Virus record (IMG/VR): IMGVR_UViG_3300046820_001584
Coordinates: 1-64,000 of that record
DNA length: 64,000 nucleotides
Strand: one strand, 5' to 3'
From: a virus
In this document: in pieces, positions 12,846 through 63,217 of the stretch
Position numbering within the stretch: position 1 is the first letter of the stretch
Layout of the letters: the number at the start of each line of letters is the position of its first letter
Position numbers and translations under genes: made by a program
The notes under the pieces: generated by a model
What the model saw: only the letters and a program-made list of their open reading frames with translations
Databases searched by the model: none
Told to the model about the DNA's origin: nothing

Positions 12846-12951
12846 CTTTAATCCTCTTATCTATCTTGTCAACAAAAAGCCCAAGGCCGTATCCCAGGGA
12901 CAAACCAATCAAAAATGCAATAGAAGATACTACTAAGTAATCTTCAATCAT
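12835..12951 (-). CDS. 38-aa single-pass membrane peptide
   Basis: Manual translation MIEDYLVVSSIAFLIGLSLGYGLGLFVDKIDKRIKDGR; overlaps both neighbours. Confidence 0.6.
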   Translation of the reverse strand: MIEDYLVVSSIAFLIGLSLGYGLGLFVDKIDKRIKDGR

Positions 12952-39800: not shown

Positions 39801-42677
39801 AGGTGCGGCTGCAACAAGTGCTGCGTTTCTTGGATCTAGCGAAGCTTCTTGATTTAATACATATCCGCCAATTGGTACTGATCCCATTCTGTCATCATAT
39901 GTAATTGATGCTGGACCAGTAACCCGTGTTTTATTTGAACCAAATTCTTCAATTTTACCGCCCTCATTAAATCTAGGCTTTGTTGTTTGTATGCTGTATC
40001 CAGCACCTGAAGTTCTAACGCCAAGACCACGTGCAATAGAATCTACAAGCTTGGAAGTTTCTGATTTATGGAAAAGTTCTTTCATGTTTGACTTTCCAGC
40101 TGCGCTTACAACTGGCTGAGTTGTTAATGGCACTGTAGTCAAACTAATAGTTCTTGCTTGAGCTGCTGCAACACCTTGTGCTGTTTGAACCATCATTGCT
40201 TCTACTTGTGCGTTTAATGCAAATATTTTAGCTCTTGCTGCTTCGACTGTAATCTTACCAGCTTGTAGCTGCTTAACAATTAAAGCGGTTTCGTCTGCTG
40301 CCAAAGAAGTTATCTTTGTCATTTGTGGAAGTAATGCTTGGTATGAATCTGCTAATGACGCAGTTACTGTTCCTGTAGCAGCAACTTCAGTTTTAAGTAA
40401 TGCTAATTCTGCCTTTGACTGCATAGCAATTGCTGCTGTCATAGAATGCCACTTTGCTGCTTCTGCTGCAACTATACCATTAGAGACTCCATTTACTGAA
40501 GTAACTCCAGGAATTCTTGGAAGATCGTCATTCATATATGTCTGTGGTGAATTTGAAAGTCTTAGGTTTACTGGCTTAGGGCCAGGCACTGTAGAGAATA
40601 TTGTTTCACTTGCTCTTTGTTCTGCAGTTTTTGATCCAGTTGGAATAACATGAGACATGTCTCTTGAATAAGGTCTACCTACAAGAGGGTTATTTTTATC
40701 TACAATTCTTCCTCCACCTCGTGTAACTGGATTTCCAGCCACGGTAGACATACTATTGTTTGTTGCAATAGTAGAAGACATAGCGCTTTGCTTTAGTTTG
40801 TCAAATGAGGCTGCTAAGGTTAAGACTGCATCTGAAAATGTTGCAGCTGCTTTTGTATCGCTGTAAAATGCTTGTTCTACAGTTTTAGCAGCTGACTCTG
40901 CTGCAATTAGTTCTGGTGTTAAAAGCTTAAATCCTGTTCCACCCTTGCCAATATTTTTAAGTGCAAATATTCCTTTAATTATGTATCCAAAGAAGTTGGC
41001 AAGAACACCAGTTAACATAATGATTGGCCCAGCAATTGCTGTAAGGCTTCCAATAAATCCTAGAACTGCCTTAATCGGTCCAGGAAGGTTTCCTATAAAC
41101 TTTACAATTCCATCAATTGCATTTAATACAAATGTTCCTACCTTTAAGAACTGTTCTCCAATTACTGCGAGGTCTGCCTTTACAGCTTCGAGTGCTCTTC
41201 TATATTTACCAGAAGCAGACTCTGTCATTGCTGTTAATTCTCGCTCAGATATACTAGCCAAATCTTGTGTGCTAGCTTTCATTAAGTCTAGGACCTGAAG
41301 TGTTTGGCTTCCTTCTTTTCCTAGGTTTTCAAATAATGCATTGATTCTTGCAAACTGGAACTTGCCAAATAGCTGTTCAATTGCTCTTGCTCTTTGTAGT
41401 GGTTGTAACGCATCTAACGAATCTTTAAGTGCCATAACTGTTCCAGTTAAGTTCCCAGCGTTTTTATCTACTATGCCAGCTAGATCAATACCAAATCCCA
41501 TAAATTGTTCTTTAGCAACCTTAGTAGGATTAATAATAGATGCAAGTGCTGACTTAAGAGCATTTGCACCTTCTGATGCATTGATTCCACCTTCACGCAT
41601 TGCAGTTAAATAAAGTGCAAGATCTTGTACATCTCCGCCTAGAGCCTTTACTACTGGACCAGCTTTAGGAATCGCTTCAACTAAATCTGCAAGGCTTGTT
41701 GATGTTTGGTTTTCAACTGCGTTAAGGAAGTCAATTGATTCAGCCAACTGCTGTGTATTTTGACCAAAAGCTGTTTGGATAGAAAGTGTAGCTTTCATTG
41801 CTTCTTGTCTATCAACTTCTCCAAGAACTGCAAGTCTTGTAGTTTGTCTAGTAGAGTCTAGTAACTCAACTCCTTGCTTTCCAGTTGCTGCAATATCAGC
41901 CGCTAGTGCAATTGTTTCATTAAAGTTTGCACCTAATCCTGATGCTAATTCTCTTGATAATGCTGTAACATCTTTTCTAACTTGTAATAAATCTGCTGAT
42001 GATGTTGCTGTTAATCCGCCATAAACCTTTGTAAGTCTTACAAGCTCTTCGTCTGCTTGTCTAAATGCTTTTGCTGCAGCCATTCCAAATGCTGCCAATG
42101 GTACAGTAAGTCCTACAGTAAGCTGTCTACCTGCCCACTGAGTATTCTTACCCCAGTTAATAAGTTGATTAGATCCATCCATCATCACCTTGTTCATGAT
42201 AGATAGTTCTTGTCTTAATAATGCTGATTTATTTTTTGTTGCATCTAGACCAGACTGAACCATAACATTGTATTGCATTAATCCTTGAGCATTTTTACCA
42301 AGTGGTTGAACTATGGCATTTTCAAGCATTACTTGTTGCTTAGCTAATTCTTTAACTAGTGTGCTAGTTTTTTGTGTATGACCCTGCCATGTTCTAAAAT
42401 ATTGGCCAAGCTTCATTCTACCGCTATCTAGATTTTGTCCAAACTTAGATACGTCTGATGTTAATGTTACAAAGTGTCTAGAGAACTGGCCAGTGGAGCG
42501 CATGGTTTCGTCAAACTGACGATTCATGACTCCAACCTGGCTAGTTAAATTTTTATTTAAACCAATTGTTGTAGCTTGAAGTTTTAGAAGTTGAGAGGTC
42601 ACCGCTTGTAACTGCGCTGTTAGGCCACTAAAATTAGCCGTCGCAGTTATGTTGGTAACTATATTTTGATCTGCCAA
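33873..42677 (-). CDS. Tape measure protein (2934 aa) with inserted domains
   Basis: TP901-type core (NWGKNTQWAGRQL...LNAVENQT...ANALKS), Ala/Gly-rich helices, VGE.GPE motifs, follows the tail chaperones. Confidence 0.92.
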   Translation of the reverse strand: MADQNIVTNITATANFSGLTAQLQAVTSQLLKLQATTIGLNKNLTSQVGVMNRQFDETMRSTGQFSRHFVTLTSDVSKFGQNLDSGRMKLGQYFRTWQGHTQKTSTLVKELAKQQVMLENAIVQPLGKNAQGLMQYNVMVQSGLDATKNKSALLRQELSIMNKVMMDGSNQLINWGKNTQWAGRQLTVGLTVPLAAFGMAAAKAFRQADEELVRLTKVYGGLTATSSADLLQVRKDVTALSRELASGLGANFNETIALAADIAATGKQGVELLDSTRQTTRLAVLGEVDRQEAMKATLSIQTAFGQNTQQLAESIDFLNAVENQTSTSLADLVEAIPKAGPVVKALGGDVQDLALYLTAMREGGINASEGANALKSALASIINPTKVAKEQFMGFGIDLAGIVDKNAGNLTGTVMALKDSLDALQPLQRARAIEQLFGKFQFARINALFENLGKEGSQTLQVLDLMKASTQDLASISERELTAMTESASGKYRRALEAVKADLAVIGEQFLKVGTFVLNAIDGIVKFIGNLPGPIKAVLGFIGSLTAIAGPIIMLTGVLANFFGYIIKGIFALKNIGKGGTGFKLLTPELIAAESAAKTVEQAFYSDTKAAATFSDAVLTLAASFDKLKQSAMSSTIATNNSMSTVAGNPVTRGGGRIVDKNNPLVGRPYSRDMSHVIPTGSKTAEQRASETIFSTVPGPKPVNLRLSNSPQTYMNDDLPRIPGVTSVNGVSNGIVAAEAAKWHSMTAAIAMQSKAELALLKTEVAATGTVTASLADSYQALLPQMTKITSLAADETALIVKQLQAGKITVEAARAKIFALNAQVEAMMVQTAQGVAAAQARTISLTTVPLTTQPVVSAAGKSNMKELFHKSETSKLVDSIARGLGVRTSGAGYSIQTTKPRFNEGGKIEEFGSNKTRVTGPASITYDDRMGSVPIGGYVLNQEASLDPRNAALVAAAPSTHKKSGSNITALLTPQETVFGPGIQNNPELFRAVDAANNGTPLQANMAGGNITLSRSSYGLVPPSAAIIRGLFTSNRTAYRKQLVLLAEKRNLQRAAVRERDAQYVGGYGSRSWLARGATTRAVLNDYIRSLPAGERRRAASLLEDFSGSIRTGRGGMDKGFARDTFTIEPGHLERGGALDKLLAKNKLPALDLERVTHATHLTRASVRNGRRFVSKYTVDYDSRSNLQANHGTLIAKNFLERNMSRTGKYDTIMQRSGVHRSKWADTEREIDAKIAASLKGKESKKIGDEKGDITFDSFIPFIDSSIVAAGGSAAKLKLLKRNVVERKNAGGMIGGTVTKGKRSYGRPLFLGIPKRFKDVELQRKARLTMEEINSGVQTSRFAGMPVTDFGKLISPSTGRSFPVPGIGGLYEKADGTRVFVKPVMDETAALAEQRATIIAREAHGLNAPKQEIRTMIDPTDPAGRRKLLVLESPYDEAFAKASGEFTKKDYFKQLVAANLRGDKDLSPDNLYGSTLNDVGTAGVFKTASGKRSYEENMISMKDQANINLLGVKGGARRFFAESTLAIPKGMTPKQYHKAMIDEIDDVLPRLKETVAKSLGKLNTEESAVYAAMIKRLEDGRRVNWEEFHGIHSAVKVSQSKALTPAALQKLKEEAELRIRQRGHAVSLSDNSFKTPLNGFNGGGSIGNVLKGLAMRRIGAGFGPTGAPKPSMYESAPWGVNSLSIEMANKLFANSGLRKNTQKLLYDKFAAALAKEKPYGYVKDAKGSLKNALEPASLDSVIRSAASDLFSDRNLIRQLSPIDKDILRKKYLNWDSKKDTPITAELKKTIFGIDGKREMGGPVSPGQNYIVGEKGPEIFSPSESGKIIPGFEAGGIIRRSKDYYGRKGNPAARAAQERAKAERAAAYVPAPVEAPERKPGPLTGSKTTVVGNGGVRTNTYGVQGSLPYMPGLTLGHAALNKTQAALLSASKQIEMALFAFGTSVKKDALTTGRVIKYSGDQLVVGARMLPGQIKSALNPLVTGIKYIGSQISTTAKAVGTQIKAAGSYLKGFAASPPPVAPGAYGGATLRQNFAANARYTTSNMLHPMQYMKNKGLINPATFGQGAVGSTVGMMGGMAVGGAVGGKLGGETGAMMGSMAGMMGGQSIMKGIGGKIATRAAASAATAGLASAGFGATAAAAAGLVAPLAAVTAAGYAGYKMWQHYKKGQELNVSTFGMTAEAAKKANLRFTDFGSKIKDTIQNSKDLADANRLVYESMKDGGTPFQMTIAEYKKLKVEVKETFKEQIDALDRQPSTKVPDAVRRIKEQLIAAGMSAEDATKKVYTMLQLSNKKDQAITATMGNVDFKAITDPQSAAVSAVTSFGKDTKDQGNKEKAASLNTALMATETGINDLIAKRERLVAKDLTGKTKSLSFAEAEKIMIDQINKSKEAGTVITQGTIDEMAKTNPEVKKMINGSDTVVSVWQKIRLQAKGFTGDLSQLNAAQTQLISDSFNAIATAVVATNSSKDGMLSKQYSALGKLEDQIKSYTKALKGQTVSQQISDREKISGLNKQIEANNKLADARKKALTAAQADADLGRQIEKTRLEMQNASATGDTQKAQELRLDLETLTTTQQTESQTKAIDKANEAANAPLKAAIEAMGNKQQKLADSAALAGESLDKVRGKYDEQKAAIDKVNNSMTALYGNAAAAGQSVEEYVKANKEAASGLVAAVEAATGQKMARYTETKAYEGGTLVTKKVPVTPQANALAILAKSGAGSPVNDALANSIKGGATLKDVVDAVKGKTPGSAALRKDIKVTGNYASQMEDKTFDGKKVQVLNAEARDAIRKRLDLQVGETFLFGGQKYGMNSTGGTPIWHAPKPKKAATGVMGGKGMFLVGENGPEFVHLKNRANIMPNDVMNTLAAASPRYNFNKAQYSLKDGSASGNSYVVNQNIYASEGMDVEALSNMIVKKAEIVIGQKAKINVKMVGQGKNI

Positions 42678-51993: not shown

Positions 51994-53799
51994 CTAGTTG
52001 TCAAAAGATCTAACAAAATACGCCGTATTGTCCTGACCAGTAGCACTTTCTTGAAAAGTTACGCCTGGGTCTTGGACAGATATTGAGTTGTCTGAACAAT
52101 ATAACTTGTAGTTTTTTAATGCTTCTGAGGCTGTAAATGCTTGTTGGTAGAAAGCAATGTTGCTGTAAACATTTGATCCGCCATAATTGAGTTCATCTTG
52201 ACTTTGATTAATTTTAATCCCTGTTGCTGCGGCATTTAAAACCACAATAACATGGTGAGCTACACCGCCTAATAAAAATTGGGATACGTTTGTTGAAGAA
52301 GTCCTATTAACTCCATTTACGTATATTGCACTAATTCCAGTTTTAGATATAGATCCATTAGCCGCCCAGCTTAATTGGGCAGAAGTAGAAGAAAACAAAA
52401 CATTTTTACCAGGCTCTGGAGTAAAAAACATCTCTACTGTTCTTGGCTGTATTGCTAGATCAACAGAGAATCCGTGTCCTGAGTACATAGAAAGCCCATT
52501 ATATTTATTTTGCATTCTTACTGGATAATTATAATATCCCAAAGAGAAGTCGTAGTCTGAGTATATTTTGCCGCCAGCATTATCAGAATAAAAATCTTTA
52601 TTAGAATATAGGTCTATCTCTAGTCTATCAAAATAAGGCAAGTCAAAAGAGGAGTCTTCAGTAGACATTGTAATTCTTATGTCTAGTATGGGGCCAGATA
52701 AATTTTCATTTTTATTAAAGTACGGTAAGGGAGAATTGTTTTTACAAGGCTTCCATTGTTCTCCAGGAACTTTAACCTCTACCAAAATATTTTCTACATC
52801 TTGTCCGTAAGATATTCTAGATGAAACAATACTTTCTGGATTTGGCACATAAAGCCTATCTTCAAATACAAAAGTTTTTTCTTCTGGTAACTGTGTCTGT
52901 GCAAATTCTATTCTTTGATACACTGGATTATAGTAAGCATCACCTGAAACTATTTTGTCTAAAGAATTTGCTCCAGGATATCTAAAAGATACTGCTGGCT
53001 TTATAAATACAGAGTTTAGTGAAAAAAACGTACCTTCTTGTGAATAAACAATTTGTGAGTATTTAGTTTCTTTGTATCCAGCTGCATAATGATTTAGTAT
53101 TTTTGAATCATCTAGCTCGTATTTATAGATTGCCGCTGAATCTACTAAAAATCTTTTCCCTATGTTTGCTGGGCCTATTTTTAAACTAATGTCTTCGTTT
53201 ATAAACTTAAAGCCATCTGAAATAAGTTTTTCAGAAGCTAAGACTCCATCTACATAAAGGGCTAATCTATTTTTAGAAAATACTCCAACTAAATGCATTA
53301 CTTTGTTTCTAGATACTTTGTGCCATACTGTTTTCTGATCAGTGCATTTAAATATTACATTTTCATTTTTGTAAAATAGACCTATTTTGTTTAGAGAGTC
53401 TCCAAGTATCATATATTCATTTAAGTCAGAAGAGTCTGGCTTAAACCATATTTCAAATGAAAATGGGCTGTCTGGATTTTTAGATGTGGCAACTCCAAGT
53501 GCCTTTAGAGATAGATCTACATTGTCATTAATTTCAGTTCCTCTAACTCCCGCTCCAACTATTGGAAGCACTTCCATGTCAGAAGAATCTAGTGCATATC
53601 CTTCCATTGCATTTCCAGAATAATCTATTATTGGAAGCCCAGATATAGCTGCATATGAAACGCCATTATCTCTTAGATCTGCATAGGTTGCATATAATGT
53701 AGTTAAATTGCTGTAAACGCCAGCTTCTCCAGAACGAACTTCATCTAGCAAAAAAAATGCAAGTGGGTTATCTTTTAAGACAGTGTATTTATATGACAT
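51994..53799 (-). CDS. LamG/ConA-like lectin-domain virion protein
   Basis: VLKDNPLAFFLLDE, FSFEIWFKP, HLVGVF...LYVDG, AIY..L...I..HY. Confidence 0.75.
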   Translation of the reverse strand: MSYKYTVLKDNPLAFFLLDEVRSGEAGVYSNLTTLYATYADLRDNGVSYAAISGLPIIDYSGNAMEGYALDSSDMEVLPIVGAGVRGTEINDNVDLSLKALGVATSKNPDSPFSFEIWFKPDSSDLNEYMILGDSLNKIGLFYKNENVIFKCTDQKTVWHKVSRNKVMHLVGVFSKNRLALYVDGVLASEKLISDGFKFINEDISLKIGPANIGKRFLVDSAAIYKYELDDSKILNHYAAGYKETKYSQIVYSQEGTFFSLNSVFIKPAVSFRYPGANSLDKIVSGDAYYNPVYQRIEFAQTQLPEEKTFVFEDRLYVPNPESIVSSRISYGQDVENILVEVKVPGEQWKPCKNNSPLPYFNKNENLSGPILDIRITMSTEDSSFDLPYFDRLEIDLYSNKDFYSDNAGGKIYSDYDFSLGYYNYPVRMQNKYNGLSMYSGHGFSVDLAIQPRTVEMFFTPEPGKNVLFSSTSAQLSWAANGSISKTGISAIYVNGVNRTSSTNVSQFLLGGVAHHVIVVLNAAATGIKINQSQDELNYGGSNVYSNIAFYQQAFTASEALKNYKLYCSDNSISVQDPGVTFQESATGQDNTAYFVRSFDN

Positions 53800-53802
53800 G
53801 TC

Positions 53803-54915
53803 TTACTTCTCTTCTAGTGCTTTAACTCTCGCTGTAAGCTCTTGTACTGCTTTAATTAATGGAGCAATAAATTGGTCATATCTAAGTCCCTGCATAGAGT
53901 CTTCTTCTGACATATCCATTTTTACCCAGCCTGCAAAATCTGCAACTCCAGACTCATCTAAAACTGTTTTTACTTCTTGTGCAATAAGTCCATAGTGGGT
54001 TCTTGATCCAGGAATTGAAACAATATCTCCGTCTACTATTTCTTTTCCGCCTTCAATAAACTTATAGCTTACTGGATTTAGATTATTAATAAAATTAAGG
54101 CCTAGTTGAGATGATGTAATGTCAGTCTTTAGTCTTTGATCTGATGTATTAATAGTTCCAGTGTTTGAGTATATTGTTTTCCAAAATCTATTTGAGCTAA
54201 CTCCATTAGGAACGTCTGTTGGCTGACCAAGATTATAAAGGTTGTTTGCAATTGGATACCAGTTAGAGTTTACGCCAAATCCTGCTGAGGTTGGTATATT
54301 TAAACTTATTGTTGTTGGCACTGGATCTATAGTTGCGCTTGATCCAGGAATTCCTTGTGGTCCCGTGGCACCCGTGGCACCCGTGGCACCTCTTGGAATT
54401 GTAAATGCAAAAACGGCATTTGCAGACGTGCCAGTGTTGGTTACAGAAGCGCTTGTTCCAGCTGCACCTGTTGTAGTAGTTCCAATAGCTAGAGTGGTTG
54501 GACCCTGCGGGCCAGCGGGCCCTTGCGGACCCTGTGGACCTTGTGGTAAAACTAGATTTAATGTTTGCGATGGGCTGGTGCCAGTTATTGTTGCATTAGC
54601 TGAAGCTCCGCCAACAACGGTACCTATATTTAAAACATTAGAAGGGCCAGGCCCACCAATAATTCCATCAATACCTCTAGGCAATGTTAAGTTTAATATA
54701 GCATTAGAAGATGTTCCAACATTTGTAACTGCTGCTGGAGTACTTGCGCTAACGGTGGTTACTGTACCTATTGCTAAGGTGCCTGAAGGGCCCTGTGGGC
54801 CTGGATTAGCAGCAATGAAGGTTGCAATGTCAGCACCAAGGTTTCCAAGGTCTCTAGGGACGTCTGGGGTGTCTGTATAGTCTGGAAATCTCCAGCCGTT
54901 TACTCCTGTGCTCAT
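53803..54915 (-). CDS. Collagen-repeat tail fibre with S74 chaperone domain
   Basis: Short Gly-X-Y tracts (GPQGPQGPAGPQGP, GATGATGATGPQG) between L.IGTV..G..A domains; TSDQRLKTDI...GLIAQEV...AVQEL. Confidence 0.8.
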   Translation of the reverse strand: MSTGVNGWRFPDYTDTPDVPRDLGNLGADIATFIAANPGPQGPSGTLAIGTVTTVSASTPAAVTNVGTSSNAILNLTLPRGIDGIIGGPGPSNVLNIGTVVGGASANATITGTSPSQTLNLVLPQGPQGPQGPAGPQGPTTLAIGTTTTGAAGTSASVTNTGTSANAVFAFTIPRGATGATGATGPQGIPGSSATIDPVPTTISLNIPTSAGFGVNSNWYPIANNLYNLGQPTDVPNGVSSNRFWKTIYSNTGTINTSDQRLKTDITSSQLGLNFINNLNPVSYKFIEGGKEIVDGDIVSIPGSRTHYGLIAQEVKTVLDESGVADFAGWVKMDMSEEDSMQGLRYDQFIAPLIKAVQELTARVKALEEK

Positions 54916-54935
54916 TTTTTTATTATACCACCGAT

Positions 54936-55586
54936 CTACTTAATATATACGTGTGCTGGGCTCATATATCTGGTGCCAGAAATAATTGGCTTTACTTCAT
55001 GAATATATGGCTCCTGCGAAGGAAACATTATCATGCTTCCAGCCTTTGGCTTAACGGTAACATTGTGATTTGGAAAGCTAATTTCTCCGCCTTCGTAGTC
55101 GTCGTTTATATATGCTACCAAAGAAAATGCTAGATCTGCATTACCATCTTGTCCGTCAAAATGTGGACCCATAGACTGTCCTTCATTCCAAGCCTTAATA
55201 GTGGTGTTATCTAAATTTAAATTATATTTACTTTTATCTAGCTTGTGTCCTTCTAGGTATCTATCGGTACACATTTCAAATGCCATTAGAAAGCTATTTG
55301 CTATATACAAAGTTTTTTTATCTACCACATCTGATCCAGTAGATTCTTTTAACTTAGACTTATTAATATTTTTCGTTTTCCCGTAAATTAATTCTTTGTC
55401 GTCGCTTGCTGTCCAATTTTCCCATTTAGATATTCTAGAATAAGACTGTGGCTCTTCATCAATTTTGTCAATAAATACTTTTAGCTCTTCTGGAAAACTT
55501 AATGCATTTTCCCAGTACCAAATTTGTGGTCCAAGAACCTTAAGGTCAAACATTATAAATTGTTTAAACTCAATATTGTTTTGCAT
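54936..55586 (-). CDS. 2OG-Fe(II) oxygenase, prolyl-4-hydroxylase-like
   Basis: HFD...YINDDYEGGEI...HEV...RY. Confidence 0.88.
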   Translation of the reverse strand: MQNNIEFKQFIMFDLKVLGPQIWYWENALSFPEELKVFIDKIDEEPQSYSRISKWENWTASDDKELIYGKTKNINKSKLKESTGSDVVDKKTLYIANSFLMAFEMCTDRYLEGHKLDKSKYNLNLDNTTIKAWNEGQSMGPHFDGQDGNADLAFSLVAYINDDYEGGEISFPNHNVTVKPKAGSMIMFPSQEPYIHEVKPIISGTRYMSPAHVYIK

Positions 55587-56335
55587 TATTCTACTTCCTT
55601 GGCTGGATATTTTTCTCCAGTTGCAGTAATACGTAGTCCTTGATTACGAATTTCTTCCCATTCGACAGCTTCTGTTTTTTGATATGCTCTTACTTCAGCA
55701 AGCTCAGCTGCCCAAGCGTCTCTTACTTCTTGTGGATAGTCTGATTCTTCTCTGTCATCCCAAAAAGATCCAAGGGTATATCTAATTGCTTTCTTTACGG
55801 TTGTAACTTCATGAGTATTTTCAAATCCACCCGCAAATGTAGCCATGCTTCCAGTCTTTGGAATAATTGTTAATCCGTGCTTAAAATTTAAAACTCCGTC
55901 TTCAAAGTCATCATTTAAGTAAATAAATGTTGCGTATCTGCTTCTTGTAAATGCACCAGAGTTTCCGTCATTGTCTGTGTTATCTGAATGCATATTTGCA
56001 AATGCGCCAGGTGCCCATCTCTGAGAGTGCCAACTAATTTGTGACATTTGCTCAGGATTTTTACCAGCCATATCGGCTGTTGCGTCAATTACTCTTTGTC
56101 TTAGTACTTGAAAAAAATCTCCTGGCAATCCGCAAGCAATTGTATCTGGATCATTGACTTCTGGCATACCAGATGAATATGATTCATAGAAAGAAATAGG
56201 CATCCACTTCAATTCTTCTTTTTGCATTTTTATGTCTAGGACTTTAATAATTGCAGCGCACTCTTCTGGAGTCAAGAAATTGTCATATACAACTATATCT
56301 GATTTATGTCTTGTTACAACCATGTCTCTTTCCAT
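55586..56335 (-). CDS. 2OG-Fe(II) oxygenase, prolyl-4-hydroxylase-like
   Basis: NFLTPEEC, HSD...YLNDDFEDG...HEV...RYT. Confidence 0.88.
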   Translation of the reverse strand: MERDMVVTRHKSDIVVYDNFLTPEECAAIIKVLDIKMQKEELKWMPISFYESYSSGMPEVNDPDTIACGLPGDFFQVLRQRVIDATADMAGKNPEQMSQISWHSQRWAPGAFANMHSDNTDNDGNSGAFTRSRYATFIYLNDDFEDGVLNFKHGLTIIPKTGSMATFAGGFENTHEVTTVKKAIRYTLGSFWDDREESDYPQEVRDAWAAELAEVRAYQKTEAVEWEEIRNQGLRITATGEKYPAKEVE

Positions 56336-57150
56336 TATTCATTTTCTCCCTTTATATTAGCAAGATCATCGTAAAGTGTTGGTACACCATTTTCCAAATA
56401 TCTCATGTTTCTTGGATCTTCGTATTTAATTCTTTCCGCTTCCATTTGAGCCCATTTATATGCACCATAAGTTTTTTGATTATTTAGCCATTCTTTTGTT
56501 CCATCGAACGGTGTCATAACAAAGTTTCTTACAAAAAACTTTTCGTTATTTTCAATAGTTTTAACTCCGTGGTAGTATGGCTCTGTAGATGGAAATACTA
56601 AAATATCTCCAGAAACTGGCTTATGATTAATAAGCTTGCCGTCTACAAAAAATTCAATATCTCCTCCATCATAATCGTCATTTATATACATAGTACATGT
56701 TATTGAAAACTTGTCTCCAGGCATATCTTTTTGAGACGTTATGTGGTCTGTATGATACTGCATTGTCATTTTATTATCTAGAGTGTTAATTTGTGGATTA
56801 TACTTTGAATAAGAGCATCCGCTAAATCTCCAGCCTTCTGGCAAATCAATATTGTGTCTTTCTACGTAGTCCATTAAAACTGCATGATAGGCAGCCTCAA
56901 CTTCTTCTACAAAATTCTTTTCTTTAATAAACATTTCATCTGACTGCTGATCATCAGATATCTCCATTGGATTCTTTTTTTGTGTATAAGTGCCAAAGTG
57001 TGCCCATGGATCCCATGTCTTTAAAAAATGCTTGCCCTCTGAAGTTTTTTCAGACTCTTTCATTACTTCGTACATTTTTTGTGGATCAGTAAGAACATCT
57101 CTGTAAACTTCTACATTTGGATAAATCTCTATATAGTTTAATTTGCTCAT
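56335..57150 (-). CDS. 2OG-Fe(II) oxygenase, prolyl-4-hydroxylase-like
   Basis: HTD...YINDDYDGGDI...HGV...KFF. Confidence 0.88.
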   Translation of the reverse strand: MSKLNYIEIYPNVEVYRDVLTDPQKMYEVMKESEKTSEGKHFLKTWDPWAHFGTYTQKKNPMEISDDQQSDEMFIKEKNFVEEVEAAYHAVLMDYVERHNIDLPEGWRFSGCSYSKYNPQINTLDNKMTMQYHTDHITSQKDMPGDKFSITCTMYINDDYDGGDIEFFVDGKLINHKPVSGDILVFPSTEPYYHGVKTIENNEKFFVRNFVMTPFDGTKEWLNNQKTYGAYKWAQMEAERIKYEDPRNMRYLENGVPTLYDDLANIKGENE

Positions 57151-57821
57151 GGTTGTCTTTCTCCTGTATGCTTAGATATCGTCCAAAAGAATGGAGATGT
57201 AAATCGATTGCCAGATTTTACTGGTCTTACCCCGTGAGTATAATACATGTCTCCTGGGAAAAAATATGCTGCTCCTGCAACTGGCTGAAATTCAATTCCA
57301 TGTTGTGGGAAATAAAGCTCTCCACCTTCATAGTCATCGTTAAAATAAAAAAGTCCTGCTAAATCGTACCAAGGGAAATCATTTGGTCTGCCTTTTTCTG
57401 GGCCAGAATGAAATTCTTTATCTGCATGAGGTTCTTGTCTTGCGCCAATTGGCCATTTAACAATTGCTGGACCAGTTTCTTTTGCATCAACGTCAAAAAA
57501 TTTATCTACTTCGATCTTTAGTCTGTCAATCATGCTGTAAATAAGTTCTAATATTGTTGGGTCTGAAGCCCGTAAAGAATTTATAGTGCATACTCTGTCT
57601 TCCCAAACTTTATGGTCATACAGCACAAGCCCGTCTTCGTCAACGTGTGTTTCTGTCACATCCCAAATTTTATTAGAAAGGGCAAAATCCATTAATCTTT
57701 TTCTTTCTTCTAATGAAAGAAAGTCTTTAATTTCTACAATGTTATCTATGGAATTGCCAAAAAATCCAGAGGGTGTAATAGATACTGGTCTGTTGTCATG
57801 CCATTCGTTTTGAGGTTTCAT
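57147..57821 (-). CDS. 2OG-Fe(II) oxygenase, prolyl-4-hydroxylase-like
   Basis: HAD...YFNDDYEGGELYF...HGV...RFT. Confidence 0.88.
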   Translation of the reverse strand: MKPQNEWHDNRPVSITPSGFFGNSIDNIVEIKDFLSLEERKRLMDFALSNKIWDVTETHVDEDGLVLYDHKVWEDRVCTINSLRASDPTILELIYSMIDRLKIEVDKFFDVDAKETGPAIVKWPIGARQEPHADKEFHSGPEKGRPNDFPWYDLAGLFYFNDDYEGGELYFPQHGIEFQPVAGAAYFFPGDMYYTHGVRPVKSGNRFTSPFFWTISKHTGERQP

Positions 57822-57872
57822 TTTATCTTCTTCCCTTGGTAATTAATTTTACCATATTGTCGTTTATAATCT

Positions 57873-58583
57873 TTATTCTTCTTTATTCTTTTGGTTTACG
57901 CTTAGTCTTAATGCTTTTACCTGATGCTTGCCGATGGCATTTTTTAAATGATCTACCGCATCTCTGTAGAAATTAGACCATACTCCAGACCTATTTAAAT
58001 CGTAAATTATCTCAGAATATTTGTCTGAATCAAACTGGCTAGCTGGCATAGTAGACATTGGCTCAAAATTTATTTCTGACCCTTGAAGTGAGGCTAAGTC
58101 AATTGGCAAGATGGCTATAATTGGAGTTCCAGCCTTTATTGTTAAAATTTCATTTGGCTTAGTAATCATCCAGGCTACTGGAAGCTCACCTCTAAAAAAA
58201 GAAGTACTAATTAAAGTTGTAAATGGCACAGCGCCATCAAAAAAGAAATTTGGAACTGGCATAGAAAGAAGACTTAAGTTTTCTTCTGTTTTAAACATAA
58301 GCCCAGTATTAAAGCTTATAGTGCCATTTGCTCTTCCTGAATATGCATACTTTTCGCCAGATAAAATTTTAACATGATCTGGACTTGCATCGCTTACTCC
58401 ATCCCAAATAAAGCTTATGTCTTCTGGGAATGATATAGCCCATCCAAGCTGGTTTGTTAATCCCACTGGAAAACATTTATATGCATGTGCTTCCCAGGTG
58501 TCGTCCATCCATTTTCTTTTTATGGAAAGAGGTTCGACTATTCCGTATCCGTCTCTTATTTCCCAAGCCTTTATATTATGCAT
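57873..58583 (-). CDS. DUF6065-like protein
   Basis: RKWMD.....HAYKCFPV...NQLGW signature; GTPI..ILP C-terminal motif. Confidence 0.7.
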   Translation of the reverse strand: MHNIKAWEIRDGYGIVEPLSIKRKWMDDTWEAHAYKCFPVGLTNQLGWAISFPEDISFIWDGVSDASPDHVKILSGEKYAYSGRANGTISFNTGLMFKTEENLSLLSMPVPNFFFDGAVPFTTLISTSFFRGELPVAWMITKPNEILTIKAGTPIIAILPIDLASLQGSEINFEPMSTMPASQFDSDKYSEIIYDLNRSGVWSNFYRDAVDHLKNAIGKHQVKALRLSVNQKNKEE

Positions 58584-59289
58584 ATGGGTTTTTGCCAGTT
58601 TTGGCGTCTTCCTCTACCCACTTAGATCTCATTTCCATAAACTCTTGTCTGTGTTGATGATCGTTATAATCTAGCATTGTAACAATTGAAAATTTCATTC
58701 CAGATTTTACTGGCATTGCTCTATGAGAGAATAAATATGTTGATGGGAATATGTATAGGTCTCCAGCTTGTGGCTTAATGTCAAGACCTATCTTTGGAAA
58801 ATATAAATTCCCGCCTTCATAATCATCGTTAACGTAAGCTACAAGGGAGACGGTGGCGCTGTAAGAAAATCCATGATCTGCGTGTTCTTGAAAGTGTTGA
58901 CCTTCCCCATAACGAATACAGTTCATAACTTCCCAGTAATTCATTTTTACGTTGTGTTTCGAACAATAATCTTCTACTGCTGGATTTTGAGACTTTTTTA
59001 GGTCTTGCCATAAACTAGAAACTAATTTTTCTGTTTCTGTTCTTGGGTTTGGAATGTCTCCAACTTTAATGTCTTCACAATCTCTATAGTCTGGTCTTTT
59101 TTCGCTGTATCCAACAAAACCAAATGTCCATAAAAATCTAGAGTCGTTGTCTTTAATTGCCGACTCACCAATTTCATTAAGTCTTTCAATAACATTTAAC
59201 TCTTTTTTAATTGCATTTCTATAAACCCAAACTCCTGGGAAAAGCTCTTCTTTTGAAGAAAATTTATATTTATCATTAATGTTATTCAT
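58576..59289 (-). CDS. 2OG-Fe(II) oxygenase, prolyl-4-hydroxylase-like
   Basis: RYGEGQHF..HAD...YVNDDYEGG...FPS....SHRA.PV..G.KFS. Confidence 0.88.
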   Translation of the reverse strand: MNNINDKYKFSSKEELFPGVWVYRNAIKKELNVIERLNEIGESAIKDNDSRFLWTFGFVGYSEKRPDYRDCEDIKVGDIPNPRTETEKLVSSLWQDLKKSQNPAVEDYCSKHNVKMNYWEVMNCIRYGEGQHFQEHADHGFSYSATVSLVAYVNDDYEGGNLYFPKIGLDIKPQAGDLYIFPSTYLFSHRAMPVKSGMKFSIVTMLDYNDHQHRQEFMEMRSKWVEEDAKTGKNPYA

Positions 59290-59296
59290 AATATTT

Positions 59297-59326
59297 ATTA
59301 TAGCATTTAAAAATTCATATTGTCAA
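59297..59326 (-). promoter_or_regulatory. Promoter for the hydroxylase cluster, leaderless
   Basis: TTGACA-18 nt-TATAAT with TG extension, then 7 nt to ATG 59289. Confidence 0.7.
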
Positions 59327-59332
59327 TAAGAA

Positions 59333-59356
59333 AGGGAGCAGATTGACTGCTCCCTC
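59333..59356 (-). terminator. Probable terminator after the FN3-Hint gene
   Basis: AGGGAGCAG/CTGCTCCCT stem followed by TTCTTATT on the minus strand. Confidence 0.65.
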
Positions 59357-59375
59357 TCTTATTTTACGCTTATTT

Positions 59376-60716
59376 CTAGTTTCTAATTATGAACGATTGT
59401 CCTAGAACTAGAACGTCTGGGTCAGTGAAGAATCTATATACTATAGAGGCATCTTCTACTGTATCAATTGACTCTACTGCTAAGTACTTAATATCTTCGT
59501 CAGATCTATAAACTATCTGATCTCCAATTTGCATATCCGCTGGGGTTACAAATTTATAAGTATTTCCTCTAAGTGCTAGAATTTCTTCTTGCAACGAGAA
59601 TCTTGCAGTGGCATCATTATTAACCATGAATGTCTTGTTTTGCAATGTGGCTTGTATTGAGAATATCTTTGACTCAATTACCTTTGAATTACCAAGATGT
59701 GTATCTTCCCATGTTGCTGGGTCGTACTCACCTTCATTTGGCAACTTATCAAATGATAAGCTTATTAGAATATCTCCAATTTTTATATCTTTAGCCATCT
59801 TGTAGCCTGTAGATGTAAGTATTAAAGTGTCTTCATTTATGCAACCAAATCTTGGCGGTGCAAAGAAGCCAGGTGGGAAGAACGGTGGCGCAAAGAAGTT
59901 AGGTGGGAAGAACGGTGGGAAGAATGGTGGGAAGAACGGTGGGAAGAACGGTGGCGCAAAGAAGTTAGGTGGGAAGAACGGTGGCGCAAAGAAGCCAGGT
60001 GGGAAGAACGGTGGCGCAAAGAATGCGGGTGGGAAGAACGGTGGCGCAAAGAAGCCAGGTGGGAAGAACGGTGGCGCAAAGAAGCCAGGTGGGAAGAACG
60101 GTGGGAAGAACGGTGCCTGAGTTGTAATAGTTGCTGTATTAGCTGAGGCTGCTGAACGTCCATTAGCATTGTCTGCATAAACATTGTAATACTGTGATGT
60201 ATTAGCGGCGTCATCAATTGTTGTAGATAACCCTGTTACATTGTCTCTGCTTGTTCCATCATTACCAGCTACAAAATACTTGGTGATTGCTTTTCCACCA
60301 TTTGCTGGAGCTGCCCATGAAATTGTATTCTGGTTAACGCCTGGAGTTGCTGATGGGCTTGTTGGAGCACTTGGAACTGTTGTTGCTGTAACAGCAGAAG
60401 CTGCTACTGCATTTGAATTGCTATCAAGGAAGCCATCATAAGATGATACTGAGAAAGTATAAGATGTTCCTCCTGATAATCCAGTTATTGTAGCGGTATT
60501 TGTGCCAAATGCAACTGTAGCTTTTACTGTTGCGCCGTCATATACCTTGTAACCAGTTGGCGTATTACCATCAACTGGTGCTGTCCAAGATACTGTTACA
60601 GCACCGTCATTAAATGCTCTGTTGGTACCAATATCAGATGCCGTGACACCTGTTACTGGATTTGGTCCAATAAAGTTATCTTGGGCGGAAGATTTTCTAC
60701 CTATATTTTTTGACAT
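59376..60716 (-). CDS. Protein with two FN3 domains, a Pro/Phe repeat tract and a C-terminal Hint (intein-like) domain
   Basis: VSWTAP..G..PTGYKV and ISWAAP.NGG..IT.Y (FN3); (FFAPPFFPPx)n; G-CINEDTLILTSTGYKMAKDIKIGD...IGDQI...VYRF...IIRN-stop (Hint). Confidence 0.8.
   Translation of the reverse strand: MSKNIGRKSSAQDNFIGPNPVTGVTASDIGTNRAFNDGAVTVSWTAPVDGNTPTGYKVYDGATVKATVAFGTNTATITGLSGGTSYTFSVSSYDGFLDSNSNAVAASAVTATTVPSAPTSPSATPGVNQNTISWAAPANGGKAITKYFVAGNDGTSRDNVTGLSTTIDDAANTSQYYNVYADNANGRSAASANTATITTQAPFFPPFFPPGFFAPPFFPPGFFAPPFFPPAFFAPPFFPPGFFAPPFFPPNFFAPPFFPPFFPPFFPPFFPPNFFAPPFFPPGFFAPPRFGCINEDTLILTSTGYKMAKDIKIGDILISLSFDKLPNEGEYDPATWEDTHLGNSKVIESKIFSIQATLQNKTFMVNNDATARFSLQEEILALRGNTYKFVTPADMQIGDQIVYRSDEDIKYLAVESIDTVEDASIVYRFFTDPDVLVLGQSFIIRN
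59853..60117 (-). repeat. 30-bp/12-bp coding repeats encoding FFAPPFFPP(G/A/N) and FFPP
   Basis: Units of GGTGGGAAGAACGGTGGCGCAAAGAAGNNN on the plus strand, mixed with GGTGGGAAGAAC. Confidence 0.92.
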
Positions 60717-60736: not shown

Positions 60737-63217
60737 TTACGCTTTCAAGTCTCCAGCTAACAACCAAGTTGTTGCTGCGACTTTTGTGGCTGTCACTGAT
60801 GAGTTTGTTGTTCTAAGTGTTGCACCTGGTGTTGCAAGAATTGTAACTCCAGATCCAGTTATGTTAGCACCAGTACCTGATGACTGGTAGAAGTTAATTG
60901 AAGAACCAATTGCATACTTAGCATTTCCTGTTGCTTCAAAGCTTACGTTTACTGCTCCTGATAGAGGGACCAATGAGTCTCTTACTGCGGCATCTGTTCC
61001 AAGTGCATCTAATGTTGAGTTAGATGAAACAGCTGTTGCTATTGTTGTAAGTGATGGTACACCAGCCCGTGTTTGAACCTTATCTGTAAATGCTACTCCA
61101 GCTGCTGCAACTGTTACTGTTCCAGTAAATGTTGGGCTAGCGATTGGTGCCTTTGCTGCAAGTCCAGTTGTAACTGTTGAAGCAAAGTTTGCGTCATCAC
61201 CGAGTGCTGCTGCAAGTTCGTCAAGGGTATTGAGTGCTGCTGGGGCTGATGCAATTACTGCATTTACCTGAGCTGTTGCATCTGCAATAGCCTCTGACTT
61301 AGCAGTTGCAATTGCTGAAGCCTGTGCTGTAGATACTGGCTTAGCTGAGTCTGCTGTATTATTAACATTTGCAAGTCCTACTGAAGACTTTGTAAGTGCT
61401 GCTACCGCAGTTGAAACCTTTGTATCTGCTGCTGTTCCAGCTGCAGTAATAGCTTCTGACTTAGCAGTTGCTACATTTGCTGTAGTTGCTAGAAGTGAAG
61501 TATCTGCAATGCCGTGAATGTTTGTTGTATCTGATTCGTGATTTGAAAGTGCTGTAGCTGCTGAACCAAATTGTGACTGCACAGAAGATGAAATTCCATC
61601 AAGATAACCTAGTTCTGTTGAGCTAAGATTTCCAATTGATGTTGTGCTTGGTAGCACTACTGTTCCTGTAAATGTTGGACCATCTAATGGGGCAAGGGCT
61701 GTTAGTGAAGCTCCTAGTCCGTCAATTTTACTTTGAGCAATTGCTGCGGTAGGGCTAATGTCTGCGTTTACAATTGTTTCATTTGTAATTTTATCAGATG
61801 TAATTGCTCCATTTATAATGTTTACTGTATTTATTGAGTTAGCTGCAACCTTTGCAGCAGTTACTGATGAGTCAGCAATCTTTGCAGTGCTAACTGCGCT
61901 GTCGGCAATCTTTCCATTTGATACTGATAAAGCTGCAATTTTGGCTTCAGTTACAGCATTTGTTGCAATCTTAGATGAAGTTACAGCATCTTCTGCAATC
62001 TTCTCTGTAGTGACTGCAAGTCCACCAATTTCATTTGTTCCAACAGAATCATCAGAAAGATGAGACTGGGAAATTGAATTAGCTGCAATCTTTTCTGCAG
62101 TAACTGCATTGAGTGCAATTTTAGCTGTAGTGACTGCATTTGGAGCAATCTCAGACTCTCCAACTGCATTGTCTGAAATCTTAGCGGCTGTAATTGAGTT
62201 GTCTGCAATCTTGGCTGCTGTTACTGCATTTTCTGCAAGATTTGCTGCAACAATTGATCCGTTTGGCAAAACTATTGTTCCAGTTAATGTTGGGTTATTT
62301 AGAACAGATTCTGTTGACTCTAATCTTCCAACTGCTATGGCATCTAATGATCCCTGTGTAAAATCAACTGTGGTTGTAGGCTCTGTTGTAACTCCCTTAA
62401 ATAACTTCCACTTGTCTTCTGAAGCATCACGCACAAATCCAGTGTGATTAAATGTTCCAGTGTTATGACCAGCAACAAAACCTAAGTCAAGCATTCCCGA
62501 CTGGTTTGCTTTTGCCATAAGAAGCATTGTGTCTTCAATCGCAAAGTTTTCGGTGTTAATTGTTGTCATTGTTCCATTGACTGCAAGATTACCGCTAATT
62601 GTAACATCCTTAGCAAATAAGTCTCCAGTTGTTGAAATGTCTGTAGTAAGAGAGCCTAGTGGCAACTCTGACTGTAAAATTTTAGTATTTGAATCTAACG
62701 AAGCAACTCCGCCTGCAGTTCCTCTATCTCCTGTTTCTAGGTATCCTGATAGTGAGCTGTTTAATCCGCTTACTGCAGTGTCAGTGTAATCTTCTGCAGC
62801 AGATATTGCTGCAGCCTGTGCTGCATTTGCTTTAGTAGTTGCATCTGACGCAGCTGCTGCGATTGCTTCTGATTTAGCATTTGCTGCTTTAGTGTTTGCT
62901 TCTGATGTAGCAAATGTTTTTGTTGAAACTACATCTGTGTCTACAGTTATAGTAATTGTATTTGCACCATCGTTATAAGTCTTTGTTAAACCTGCGCCCA
63001 TTGTTAAGGCTGTGTTAATTGCATCTTGGGAAATTTCACCAATTGCTACATCTGAGTTGTTGGCATATGCTAGGGCTGTCCATGTAGCTGTTCCATTACC
63101 AAACTTAAATAAATTAGTGTTTGTTTCAACACCCATTTCACCTGCAGCTAATACTGGATTTGCTGTGGTCCATTCAGAGGCTGTACCTCTTCTTACTTGA
63201 ATTCTTACTGTTGACAT
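60737..63217 (-). CDS. Long fibre/virion protein with Mtd-N-like N-terminus and decapeptide repeats
   Basis: RIQVRRGTASEW...NPVLAAGEMG.ET; many (AVTxxKIAxN) decapeptides; APAALNTLDELAAALGDDANF; ends WLLAGDL. Confidence 0.75.
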   Translation of the reverse strand: MSTVRIQVRRGTASEWTTANPVLAAGEMGVETNTNLFKFGNGTATWTALAYANNSDVAIGEISQDAINTALTMGAGLTKTYNDGANTITITVDTDVVSTKTFATSEANTKAANAKSEAIAAAASDATTKANAAQAAAISAAEDYTDTAVSGLNSSLSGYLETGDRGTAGGVASLDSNTKILQSELPLGSLTTDISTTGDLFAKDVTISGNLAVNGTMTTINTENFAIEDTMLLMAKANQSGMLDLGFVAGHNTGTFNHTGFVRDASEDKWKLFKGVTTEPTTTVDFTQGSLDAIAVGRLESTESVLNNPTLTGTIVLPNGSIVAANLAENAVTAAKIADNSITAAKISDNAVGESEIAPNAVTTAKIALNAVTAEKIAANSISQSHLSDDSVGTNEIGGLAVTTEKIAEDAVTSSKIATNAVTEAKIAALSVSNGKIADSAVSTAKIADSSVTAAKVAANSINTVNIINGAITSDKITNETIVNADISPTAAIAQSKIDGLGASLTALAPLDGPTFTGTVVLPSTTSIGNLSSTELGYLDGISSSVQSQFGSAATALSNHESDTTNIHGIADTSLLATTANVATAKSEAITAAGTAADTKVSTAVAALTKSSVGLANVNNTADSAKPVSTAQASAIATAKSEAIADATAQVNAVIASAPAALNTLDELAAALGDDANFASTVTTGLAAKAPIASPTFTGTVTVAAAGVAFTDKVQTRAGVPSLTTIATAVSSNSTLDALGTDAAVRDSLVPLSGAVNVSFEATGNAKYAIGSSINFYQSSGTGANITGSGVTILATPGATLRTTNSSVTATKVAATTWLLAGDLKA

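Follow-up and report, generated by a model that had tools for sequence, protein, structure and literature searches.

The module lies within an 85.7-kb phage genome, and we analysed positions 1–64,000 of the corresponding IMG/VR record, IMGVR_UViG_3300046820_001584 (a stretch of 64,000 nucleotides, hereafter the window, whose coordinates are used throughout). All open reading frames of the block are on the minus strand and run from the FN3-repeat-Hint protein through ox1, DUF6065 and ox2–ox5 to a collagen-like fibre with a Peptidase_S74 domain. An ORF check recovered every one of them, in agreement with the gene order and coordinates of the original prediction, whose description of the locus stood for the genes and their places and failed on a second FN3 domain and a second Pro-rich protein. 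An 826-aa tail-fibre-like gene sits upstream of the module and a 601-aa LamG-type gene closes the block, with the portal beyond. The block is kept in hundreds of uncultured phage contigs and represents the fibre region of an abundant lineage of uncultured freshwater siphoviruses; all relatives used below belong to this one broad phage lineage.

Features of the module and its two flanking genes, in the direction of transcription
Feature	Position	Strand	Evidence
Tail-fibre-like protein, 826 aa (context)	60737..63217	-	Pfam Mtd_N 5e-14; PHROG tail fibre families; syntenic in relatives
Candidate appendage protein, 446 aa: conserved N-terminus, FN3, Phe/Pro repeat, Hint	59376..60716	-	ORF; architecture alignment A1
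FN3 domain, residues 36-95	60432..60611	-	Pfam fn3 8e-12, 45.6 bits
Phe/Pro tandem repeat, residues 201-291, units FFPP and FFAPPFFPPx	59844..60116	-	Composition; DNA tandem repeat
Hint (bacterial intein-like) domain, C-terminal, Cys292 to Asn446, no C-extein	59379..59843	-	Family profile A2 vs PDB; invariant Cys
GC-rich hairpin and T-rich run, putative terminator of the fibre/repeat gene	59333..59355	-	Sequence
Promoter TTGACA-18-(TG)TATAAT	59297..59326	-	12/12 consensus match
ox1, 2OG-Fe(II) oxygenase, P4H-like	58576..59289	-	PF13640 51.8 bits
DUF6065 protein, dUTPase-like fold (model)	57873..58583	-	PF19541 7e-29, 101.4 bits (cut-off 26.6)
ox2, 2OG-Fe(II) oxygenase	57147..57821	-	PF13640 32 bits; profile A6: B. 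anthracis P4H 4e-6, P3H1 1e-5; catalytic residues conserved
ox3, 2OG-Fe(II) oxygenase	56335..57150	-	PF13640 34.6 bits; profile A7: P3H1 1e-3 (weak); catalytic residues conserved
ox4, 2OG-Fe(II) oxygenase, nearest prolyl 3-hydroxylase	55586..56335	-	PF13640 32.1 bits; profile A8: P3H1 1e-10, B. anthracis P4H 1e-6; catalytic residues conserved
ox5, 2OG-Fe(II) oxygenase	54936..55586	-	PF13640 46.1 bits
Fibre, 370 aa, short Gly-X-Y runs and C-terminal S74 intramolecular chaperone	53803..54915	-	Peptidase_S74 2e-14
LamG-type structural protein, 601 aa (context)	51994..53799	-	Laminin_G_3 6.6e-12; syntenic

The first gene of the module encodes a 446-aa protein, a candidate virion-appendage protein and candidate substrate of the oxygenases, for which a search that scored 8000 candidates gave at least 520 homologues (E ≤ 0.001). 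Two FN3 domains in succession had been proposed; the first is recognised by Pfam, but residues 105–205, assigned to the second, gave no Pfam match at E ≤ 1. The stretch of about 90 residues said to consist almost only of Pro, Phe, Ala, Gly and Asn was recovered as 91 residues with 37 P, 37 F, 9 A, 5 G, 2 N and, outside those types, a single R. It is very hydrophobic. At the DNA level, positions 59,938–60,104 form a tandem array of period 30 with 5.6 copies and 94% matches, and a period of 12 was also found.

The spacer between this gene and the enzymes contains the terminator-like hairpin and the separate promoter that had been predicted there. Among the relatives' spacers, 19 of 23 fold at ≤ −20 kcal/mol (a count made without a shuffle control). 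The promoter of the window ends 7 nt ahead of the ox1 ATG, giving a near-leaderless start; among the spacers of 61 distinct relatives only five contain its strict consensus, but a TAnAAT-like −10 near the start recurs.

The C-terminal Hint domain, predicted from the window copy, is real at the family level on profile evidence, although that copy searched alone gave no Pfam or PDB sequence match. The best PDB match of a profile built from 24 family members (A2) was 2lwy, a BIL domain (E 1.5e-10), followed by several inteins at ≤ 1e-4, and Pfam searches of the same members returned Intein_splicing for 13, Hint_2 for seven and PT-HINT for six. Cys292, the first residue of the domain, is invariant in the 18 whole proteins of alignment A1 and in the 24 domains of A2. 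Block B of the Hint superfamily reads Thr-x-x-His; the window copy has Ser-x-x-Glu, and across the aligned members the Ser is near-invariant and the His, counted by eye, is found in 4/24, its place being taken mostly by Gln or Glu. At the C-terminus the window copy reads Arg-Asn-stop where His-Asn would be looked for; by eye, approximately 10 of the 24 have His-Asn near the end and the rest terminate in Ile-Ala, Ile-Ser or similar. With its block-B Glu and terminal Arg-Asn, the window Hint may therefore have a low rate of cleavage. The domain always occupies the extreme C-terminus, with 0 to a few residues beyond it. Credited in the original proposal with releasing or ligating the repeat, it proved dispensable, being present in 63 of the 127 Pro-rich forms, while the other 64 stop directly after the repeat. 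Relatives also carry additional Hint-terminated ORFs, and in 25 of 27 distinct ones (six of the 27 being the main gene in truncated form, at the start of a locus) a Pro/aromatic repeat runs right up to the Hint Cys. An oxygenase gene follows within 1.5 kb in 8/21 cases.

The five predicted P4H-like enzymes were all recognised, with scores of 32–52 bits against a cut-off of 27 bits for 2OG-FeII_Oxy_3 (PF13640). The HxD...H triad and the 2OG-binding R/K are present in all five and near-invariant in the 73–154 orthologues per group, the triad of ox5 being less strictly conserved than that of the other groups; in ox1, H136, D138 and H189 occur in 154/154 sequences and K199 in 153/154. The best real PDB matches of the five profiles include collagen-type prolyl or lysyl hydroxylases. 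For ox1 (profile A4) the matches were B. anthracis P4H (5e-7), LH3 and the P4H of Chlorella virus PBCV-1 (3e-3), and for ox5 (profile A9) a PKHD-type hydroxylase (2e-8), B. anthracis P4H (1e-6) and again PBCV-1 P4H (3e-6; PDB entry 5c5t in both). The paralogues are mutually only about 24–27% identical and each has conserved orthologues, which implies non-redundant roles. Judged by their conserved residues, ox1–ox5 look like catalytically intact, anciently diverged P4H/P3H-type hydroxylases. Five is the right number for the block but not for the genome, which encodes approximately 12 oxygenase-like genes, some seven of them elsewhere in the 85.7 kb.

The gene between ox1 and ox2 belongs to DUF6065, as had been claimed. 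In a VIA search, its AF2 model (pLDDT 83) matched EIAV dUTPase best (Z 10.4, rmsd 4.5, 119 aligned), the 13 chains at Z ≥ 8 (ranks 1–13, Z 10.4–8.4) were all dUTPases or a dUTPase-related herpesvirus protein, and dCTP deaminases appeared at Z 6.6–5.4; Foldseek gave an E of 6e-4 and a TM to target of 0.5–0.7. Identity in the structural alignments was 9–18%, and profile A3 retrieved no dUTPase from the PDB at E ≤ 1. As modelled, DUF6065 shares the fold of the dUTPase/dCTP deaminase superfamily. An assignment of the protein as an oxygenase was ruled out by this dUTPase-like fold of the model.

Co-occurrence of repeat genes and enzyme clusters across phage genomes, put forward with the original prediction as a check, was positive and specific, in that the type of repeat predicts the type of cassette in 130/130 distinct loci with sufficient flank. 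Among distinct relatives with at least 2.5 kb of downstream flank, a Pro-rich (FFxPP-type) repeat was followed by ox1 and DUF6065 in 110/110 loci, whereas a Pro-poor (FTPFG/FSVFG-type) repeat was followed by them in 0/20 and by family F0, in 2–4 copies, in 19/20. The converse test, anchored on DUF6065, found a PP-type repeat gene no more than 2 kb away in 42/42 loci whose upstream flank reached 2.5 kb or more. F0 has no Pfam match; its model (pLDDT 81) gave 3bvc and 2rg4 as top matches (TM 0.61–0.66), then prolyl hydroxylases, and on this model it is an unannotated family with a 2OG-oxygenase fold. Two loci (L347 and L348) contain some PP dipeptides (20% Pro) yet carry the F0 cassette. Repeat/cassette switches came to 4 and 5 changes on the FN3 tree and to 3 on a marker of the phage backbone next to the portal; independent switches total 3–5, with three on well-supported branches and five on the best tree. 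All three independent pairs point in the same direction (sign test, p = 0.25).

That the enzyme type changes with the repeat type points to the repeat as the target of chemical modification by these enzymes. We put at roughly 55% the probability that the cassette hydroxylates the repeat and that the Hint domain removes itself, the support for this mechanism being genomic association throughout. Late in infection the oxygenases would hydroxylate prolines of the repeat, with the paralogues perhaps each responsible for its own positions or ring carbon (4-Hyp, 3-Hyp) and DUF6065 assisting them without catalysis of its own. Through a thioester at Cys292 the Hint domain would cleave itself off, so that the mature protein finishes with the repeat, just as the orthologues without a Hint do, and the modified hydrophobic tail might serve appendage assembly or adhesion. 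The interpretation originally offered is partly supported, with regard to the hydroxylase-type enzymes, the Hint domain and their co-occurrence, and was not borne out for the collagen fibre, for an indispensable Hint or for a RiPP-like product.

Repeat and cassette are adjacent, and co-transfer of one DNA block could therefore give the same pattern without any functional tie. The oxygenases would then serve general auxiliary functions or host takeover, with host proteins, small molecules or nucleic acids as substrates; their genes would occupy a variable hot spot flanked by fibre genes, and the match of types would reflect co-inheritance or co-transfer. We regard this as the strongest competitor but on balance unlikely. 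No recombinant of repeat and cassette was seen among the 130 distinct loci, despite a conserved spacer that offers a crossover site and a Hint-coding segment, lying between repeat and cassette, for which we count 15 or more gains or losses, none of which broke the pairing. The pairing also holds in both deep backbone clades, and within one genome other repeat-Hint genes have the same type of repeat, the three FG-type cases among the additional Hint ORFs agreeing with their genome's type. This competing reading is favoured, on the other side, by the small number of independent switches, by the scatter of oxygenase-like genes over the whole genome, by the cassette having its own promoter behind a terminator and by the PKHD/PiuC-type hydroxylase among the ox5 matches. 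Multi-copy 2OG oxygenases without an assigned target are common in other aquatic phages; cyanomyoviruses, too, have numerous genes of the 2OG-Fe(II) oxygenase superfamily, for which PMC3037559 proposes DNA repair or 2OG modulation and not protein modification.

It is improbable that the enzymes hydroxylate the collagen-like fibre or other fibres instead of the Phe/Pro repeat. The fibre does adjoin the cassette, and the best PDB relatives of the enzymes are collagen-modifying; however, its 15 Gly-X-Y triplets fall into only three runs (of 4, 5 and 6). The enzyme block does not lie between two Pro-rich proteins, as had been stated, because the fibre has 7.8% Pro (29/370), these short Gly-X-Y runs and no more than two Pro-Gly sites. 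Of the 59 relatives with a whole cassette, 31 have the fibre and 28 lack it, with at least nine gains or losses; it is an optional neighbour and no component of the unit to which it had been assigned. We give very little credence to the further proposal of a RiPP-like product, in which the repeat would be a precursor with many cores for small modified peptides (of the PPFF-type cyclic kind) and the Hint thioester would aid their release. The units presumably resemble PPFF-containing cyclic peptides, and ligation driven by the thioester is conceivable in principle. However, the units, whose number varies from about 3 to more than 30, are contiguous without spacers or cleavage/recognition sites, the protein begins with a conserved structural module (FN3) and is encoded in a fibre region, every second orthologue lacks the Hint, and the ten neighbours include no Pfam protease, peptidase, cyclase or exporter apart from the fibre's own S74 chaperone.

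Hydroxylation of the repeat with self-removal of the Hint domain, the reading we prefer, can be set beside several known systems. The T4-like cyanophages, in the cited sections of PMC3037559, are likewise aquatic phages with many 2OG-Fe(II) oxygenase genes, whereas in the present genome co-variation links the largest cluster to the gene of a candidate substrate. BIL domains of A and B type are described in the portion of PMC7765530 used here as Hint domains outside an intein context, in variable regions of non-conserved proteins. The phage domains resemble them in their N-terminal Cys nucleophile, some members ending in His-Asn (A-type-like) and others not (B-type-like), but they occur in putative virion proteins, at the extreme C-terminus behind a Pro/aromatic repeat, and most of them lack the block-B His. 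The same portion of PMC7765530 describes the Hog-Hint of Hedgehog proteins, a C-terminal Hint that removes itself via a thioester and whose N-terminal part can pass to a nucleophile; unlike it, the phage Hint has no sterol-recognition region. The Peptidase_S74 chaperone of fibres and spikes likewise sits at the C-terminal end of phage fibre proteins and removes itself, but its fold and chemistry are unrelated to those of Hint. A viral prolyl hydroxylase paired with a Pro-rich viral protein is already known in kind: the prolyl 4-hydroxylase of Chlorella virus PBCV-1 acts on Pro-rich repeats of the same virus. Both systems combine a P4H-type 2OG oxygenase with tandem Pro-containing repeats in one virus, but the present one, known from its genes, is that of a bacteriophage, with at least five diverged paralogues and DUF6065 in one operon and, as the adjacent and co-varying substrate candidate, aromatic FFxPP repeats that are often capped by a Hint domain.

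Relatives of the 446-aa repeat protein were fetched from viral contigs using three repeat-protein queries (74, 57 and 80 loci) and a fourth query (nine loci), and a metagenome scan contributed 56 more loci. ORFs were called and then labelled by phmmer and by HMMs made from the window genes; loci whose flank was shorter than 2.5 kb, rows sharing identical last 150 residues of the repeat protein, and seven loci without an FN3-plus-repeat ORF (L128, L131, L138, L150, L173, L174 and L176) were excluded. The original prediction expected repeat genes to co-occur with the enzyme cassette, which comprises five P4H/P3H-like 2OG-Fe(II) oxygenases (ox1 to ox5) and DUF6065, and this was borne out: ox1 and DUF6065 were present downstream of the repeat in all 110 distinct loci with Pro-rich repeats (at least 25% Pro; FFxPP, YFPFFPP and similar), compared with none of the 20 distinct loci with Pro-poor repeats (FTPFG and FSVFG types; 3–20% Pro). 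Nineteen of the Pro-poor loci carried a different gene family of predicted oxygenase fold, F0, which in 14/110 Pro-rich loci was also present as a single copy separating the repeat gene from ox1. In L034, the sole Pro-poor locus lacking F0, a weak DUF6065-like gene takes its place, a gene of the Asp/Asn hydroxylase family was found in one Pro-poor locus, and two borderline loci (L347 and L348) contain three PP dipeptides yet carry the F0 set. In the reverse direction, a PP-type repeat gene lay within 2 kb in 42/42 DUF6065 loci with enough upstream DNA, all of them close relatives (at least 55% identity). Overall, the searches gave at least 584 DUF6065 matches and at least 520 clusters of the repeat protein.

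Repeat type switches four times in 110 rows, and five times in 131 rows, on the tree of the FN3 region, and three times in 67 rows on the tree of a small portal-adjacent protein, where both types are found in both deep backbone clades. The cassette switched with the repeat every time, in 3/3 independent pairs on well-supported branches and in five on the best tree. Adjacent DNA can travel together, and joint switching is therefore suggestive rather than proof; a sign test over the three pairs gave p = 0.25, and three pairs cannot give significance. The main rival explanation is that the enzymes are unrelated auxiliary oxygenases co-inherited with the repeat gene. However, on the same tree the Hint segment, which lies between repeat and cassette, underwent at least 15 state changes and the S74 fibre (present in 31/59 relatives) at least nine, yet no mixed repeat/cassette pairing was seen among the analysed loci, which argues against mere linkage. 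We regard the rival as less likely than modification of the repeat, though a serious alternative. The conserved unit is an appendage aromatic/Pro repeat with its matching oxygenase set, to which the Hint domain and the collagen-like fibre are accessory. As the most economical mechanism we propose, with a probability of roughly 55% on the sequence evidence, that the cassette oxygenases would hydroxylate the repeat and that the Hint domain would then remove itself.

All five enzymes passed the 2OG-FeII_Oxy_3 cut-off in Pfam, and the best real PDB matches of their orthologue profiles were mainly collagen-type enzymes: Bacillus anthracis P4H for ox1; B. anthracis P4H and P3H1 for ox2, following two top rows (designed chlorophyll proteins) without a significant stretch; P3H1 for ox3 (a weak match) and for ox4 (1e-10); and a PKHD-type hydroxylase, then the B. 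anthracis and chlorella-virus P4Hs, for ox5. The iron triad and the basic 2OG-binding residue are near-invariant across 73–154 distinct orthologues per group. The paralogues are identical to one another at only about a quarter of residues, but distant relatives possess a separate orthologue of each, always in the same order. RNA-library run X24 contains contig fragments almost identical to ox4 (387 nt, 4 differences) and ox3 (290 nt, 6 differences); such contigs are not proof of transcription, and the uncovered parts carry no meaning.

The identity of DUF6065 was confirmed by Pfam, and a profile search gave no sequence-level match in the PDB. Its structural model (pLDDT 83) has a dUTPase-like fold, with thirteen dUTPase-type chains scoring Z 10.4–8.4 and a Foldseek E-value of 6e-4; on this modelled fold, the reading of DUF6065 as a sixth oxygenase was rejected. 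The family profile retrieved 2312 proteins, and all of the 120 matches listed were close relatives; the search of cellular genomes yielded a single 2.6 kb contig, which provides no context outside phages. F0 proteins are 220–240 aa long, contain conserved His-rich motifs and are encoded in 2–4 tandem copies immediately after FG-type repeat genes. They had no Pfam match, and kinship with the ox or DUF families, sought by hhalign, was set aside for want of any signal (probability at most 1.1%). The F0 model (pLDDT 81) exhibits a 2OG-oxygenase fold whose top matches were two uncharacterised proteins from marine bacteria, with prolyl hydroxylases next; F0 is placed among the oxygenases by this predicted fold only. 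We also noted two loci (L352 and L353) with three to four F0 genes and nearly proline-free repeats (FFSVFx units, 3% Pro); thus, if F0 acts on the repeat, proline cannot be the target there.

In the repeat protein itself, residues 201–291 derive from a tandem array in the DNA and consist of 37 Pro, 37 Phe, 9 Ala, 5 Gly, 2 Asn and 1 Arg. A 97-aa antisense ORF ("GGKNGG") over this array was rejected as a gene and attributed to repeat composition. Two successive FN3 domains had been proposed upstream; Pfam recovered one (residues 36–95), whereas residues 105–205 had no match and the second was not upheld. The Hint region forms the last 155 residues, beginning with Cys and ending with Asn at the stop codon. 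On its own it had no match in Pfam or the PDB; a profile of the 24-domain Hint family matched a solved bacterial intein-like domain in the PDB (1.5e-10), followed by several inteins, and members matched the Pfam families Intein_splicing (13/24), Hint_2 (7/24) and PT-HINT (6/24). The first Cys is invariant in the alignments, and the window's domain carries Glu in place of the block-B His and terminates in Arg-Asn, with His and His-Asn found in other members. These features agree with a published account of BIL domains, in which they occur in variable proteins, autocleave at the N- or C-terminus and fall into two types, A bearing His-Asn and B lacking it (PMC7765530).

The Hint domain is carried by 63/127 repeat proteins of the Pro-rich type and 20/29 of the Pro-poor type, and those lacking it end just past the repeat. 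A further 27 distinct Hint-terminated ORFs were identified in relatives, six of them main-gene copies truncated where a locus begins and the remainder including fibre-like proteins of 745–1146 aa. In 25/27 a Pro/aromatic tandem repeat immediately precedes the Hint Cys, often across a junction rich in Lys and Gly, and the additional Hint-linked repeats of FG-type genomes are likewise FG-type (3/3). An oxygenase gene lies no more than 1.5 kb downstream of 8/21 additional ORFs.

The 86-nt spacer between the repeat gene and ox1 contains an 8–9 bp GC hairpin with a T-rich tail, then a perfect −35/−10 pair with extended TG, the −10 element ending 7 nt upstream of the ox1 ATG. The cassette looks like a transcription unit of its own because hairpin and promoter separate it from the repeat gene, and the caveat to this effect in the original prediction stands. 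Spacers were at least 65 nt long in all 84 distinct relatives, and folding energies were −20 kcal/mol or lower in 19/23 (values without a shuffle control). A strict sigma-70 consensus promoter was rejected as a conserved feature (5/61 distinct spacers); what recurs is a hairpin with a −10-like element, formally counted in terms of folding energy only. The distance from −10 to ATG leaves no room for a ribosome-binding site, thus suggesting that ox1 mRNA may be leaderless. Leaderless mRNAs are common in Actinobacteria, and such a start fits the likeness of the capsid protein to those of large Streptomyces phages (56–60% identity). A WhiB gene was sought as a host marker and none was found.

The source record (85.7 kb, approximately 80% complete, the window being its first 64 kb) encodes in the window a siphovirus gene set of portal, protease, capsid protein, tape measure, large DNA polymerase, RecA-like protein and terminase. 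Every gene of the module is on the minus strand, transcribed in the order 826-aa Mtd_N fibre, repeat protein, ox1, DUF6065, ox2, ox3, ox4, ox5, 370-aa Peptidase_S74 fibre, 601-aa LamG-type protein, 112-aa protein and portal. Two runs of one sample labelled freshwater metagenome (X1 and X2), possibly the sample of origin, contain 0.92–0.93 of the words; runs with a small word share were excluded from the habitat assessment. Against a phage collection, blastn of the region returned a 54-nt match only, tblastn of the repeat protein one weak match (a tail protein that contains an intein domain), and tblastn of DUF6065 no match; the module has no cultured relative there. Seven more oxygenase-like genes lie outside the cluster, bringing the genome to approximately 12. 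Elsewhere in the genome, truly Pro-rich coding sequence is confined to a linker of PEPTPQPQ type (11 Pro in 20 residues), which could be a further hydroxylase target.

Coordinates of the module and of other features in the window, source record and related loci
Feature	Positions	Strand	Remark
Repeat protein	59376–60716	−	446 aa
"GGKNGG" ORF	59827–60120	+	97 aa
Spacer region without room for a ribosome-binding site	59290–59330		
ox1	58576–59289	−	
DUF6065	57873–58583	−	
ox1 to ox5	54936–59289	−	
Collagen-like fibre	53803–54915	−	
Tape measure protein	33873–42677	−	Very long, 2934 aa
ORF with PEPTPQPQ linker	2–1471	−	490 aa, runs off window
Extra oxygenase-like genes, window	12948–13892; 7356–7955; 2236–2823 (+); 23948–24532		
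Extra oxygenase-like genes, genome coordinates	76625–77488; 77475–78041; 79193–79954		
F0	L024:3049–5056; L163:12504–13819		Also L290 and other Pro-poor loci
B12-dependent ribonucleotide reductase	L024:5129–7213		In structural region of one backbone clade, between oxygenases and 1200-aa protein; same site in other FG-type loci; also L076, L080

Ever since cyanophages were first sequenced, the many 2OG-Fe(II) oxygenase genes of aquatic phages have lacked known targets, and one such cluster is now tied to a concrete adjacent candidate substrate. If the link is true, it provides a functional context for F0 and DUF6065, and the repeat-Hint module would represent a new role of self-cleaving Hint domains in virus assembly and a possible protein-engineering part. 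Multi-copy oxygenases are known in cyanomyoviruses, without an assigned target (PMC3037559). A more far-reaching scheme, which we regard as improbable, is a dedicated multi-enzyme hydroxylation of the phage's own virion appendages through swappable repeat and oxygenase modules (FFxPP with P4H-like enzymes and DUF6065; FG-type with F0), yielding sticky modified aromatic tails that the Hint thioester would ligate covalently to a virion protein or host envelope component, akin to Hedgehog-type transfer but in a virus; were it true, a first class of substrates would be known for the multi-copy 2OG oxygenases found in aquatic phages. In the literature searched, we found no account of hydroxylation in phage virion proteins or of a repeat-Hint module, and no paper on the DUF6065 family. 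The closest known parallel is the P4H of a chlorella virus together with the Pro-rich repeats of the same virus. Should the link hold, phage virion proteins can undergo enzymatic hydroxylation, as do collagen and plant cell-wall proteins.
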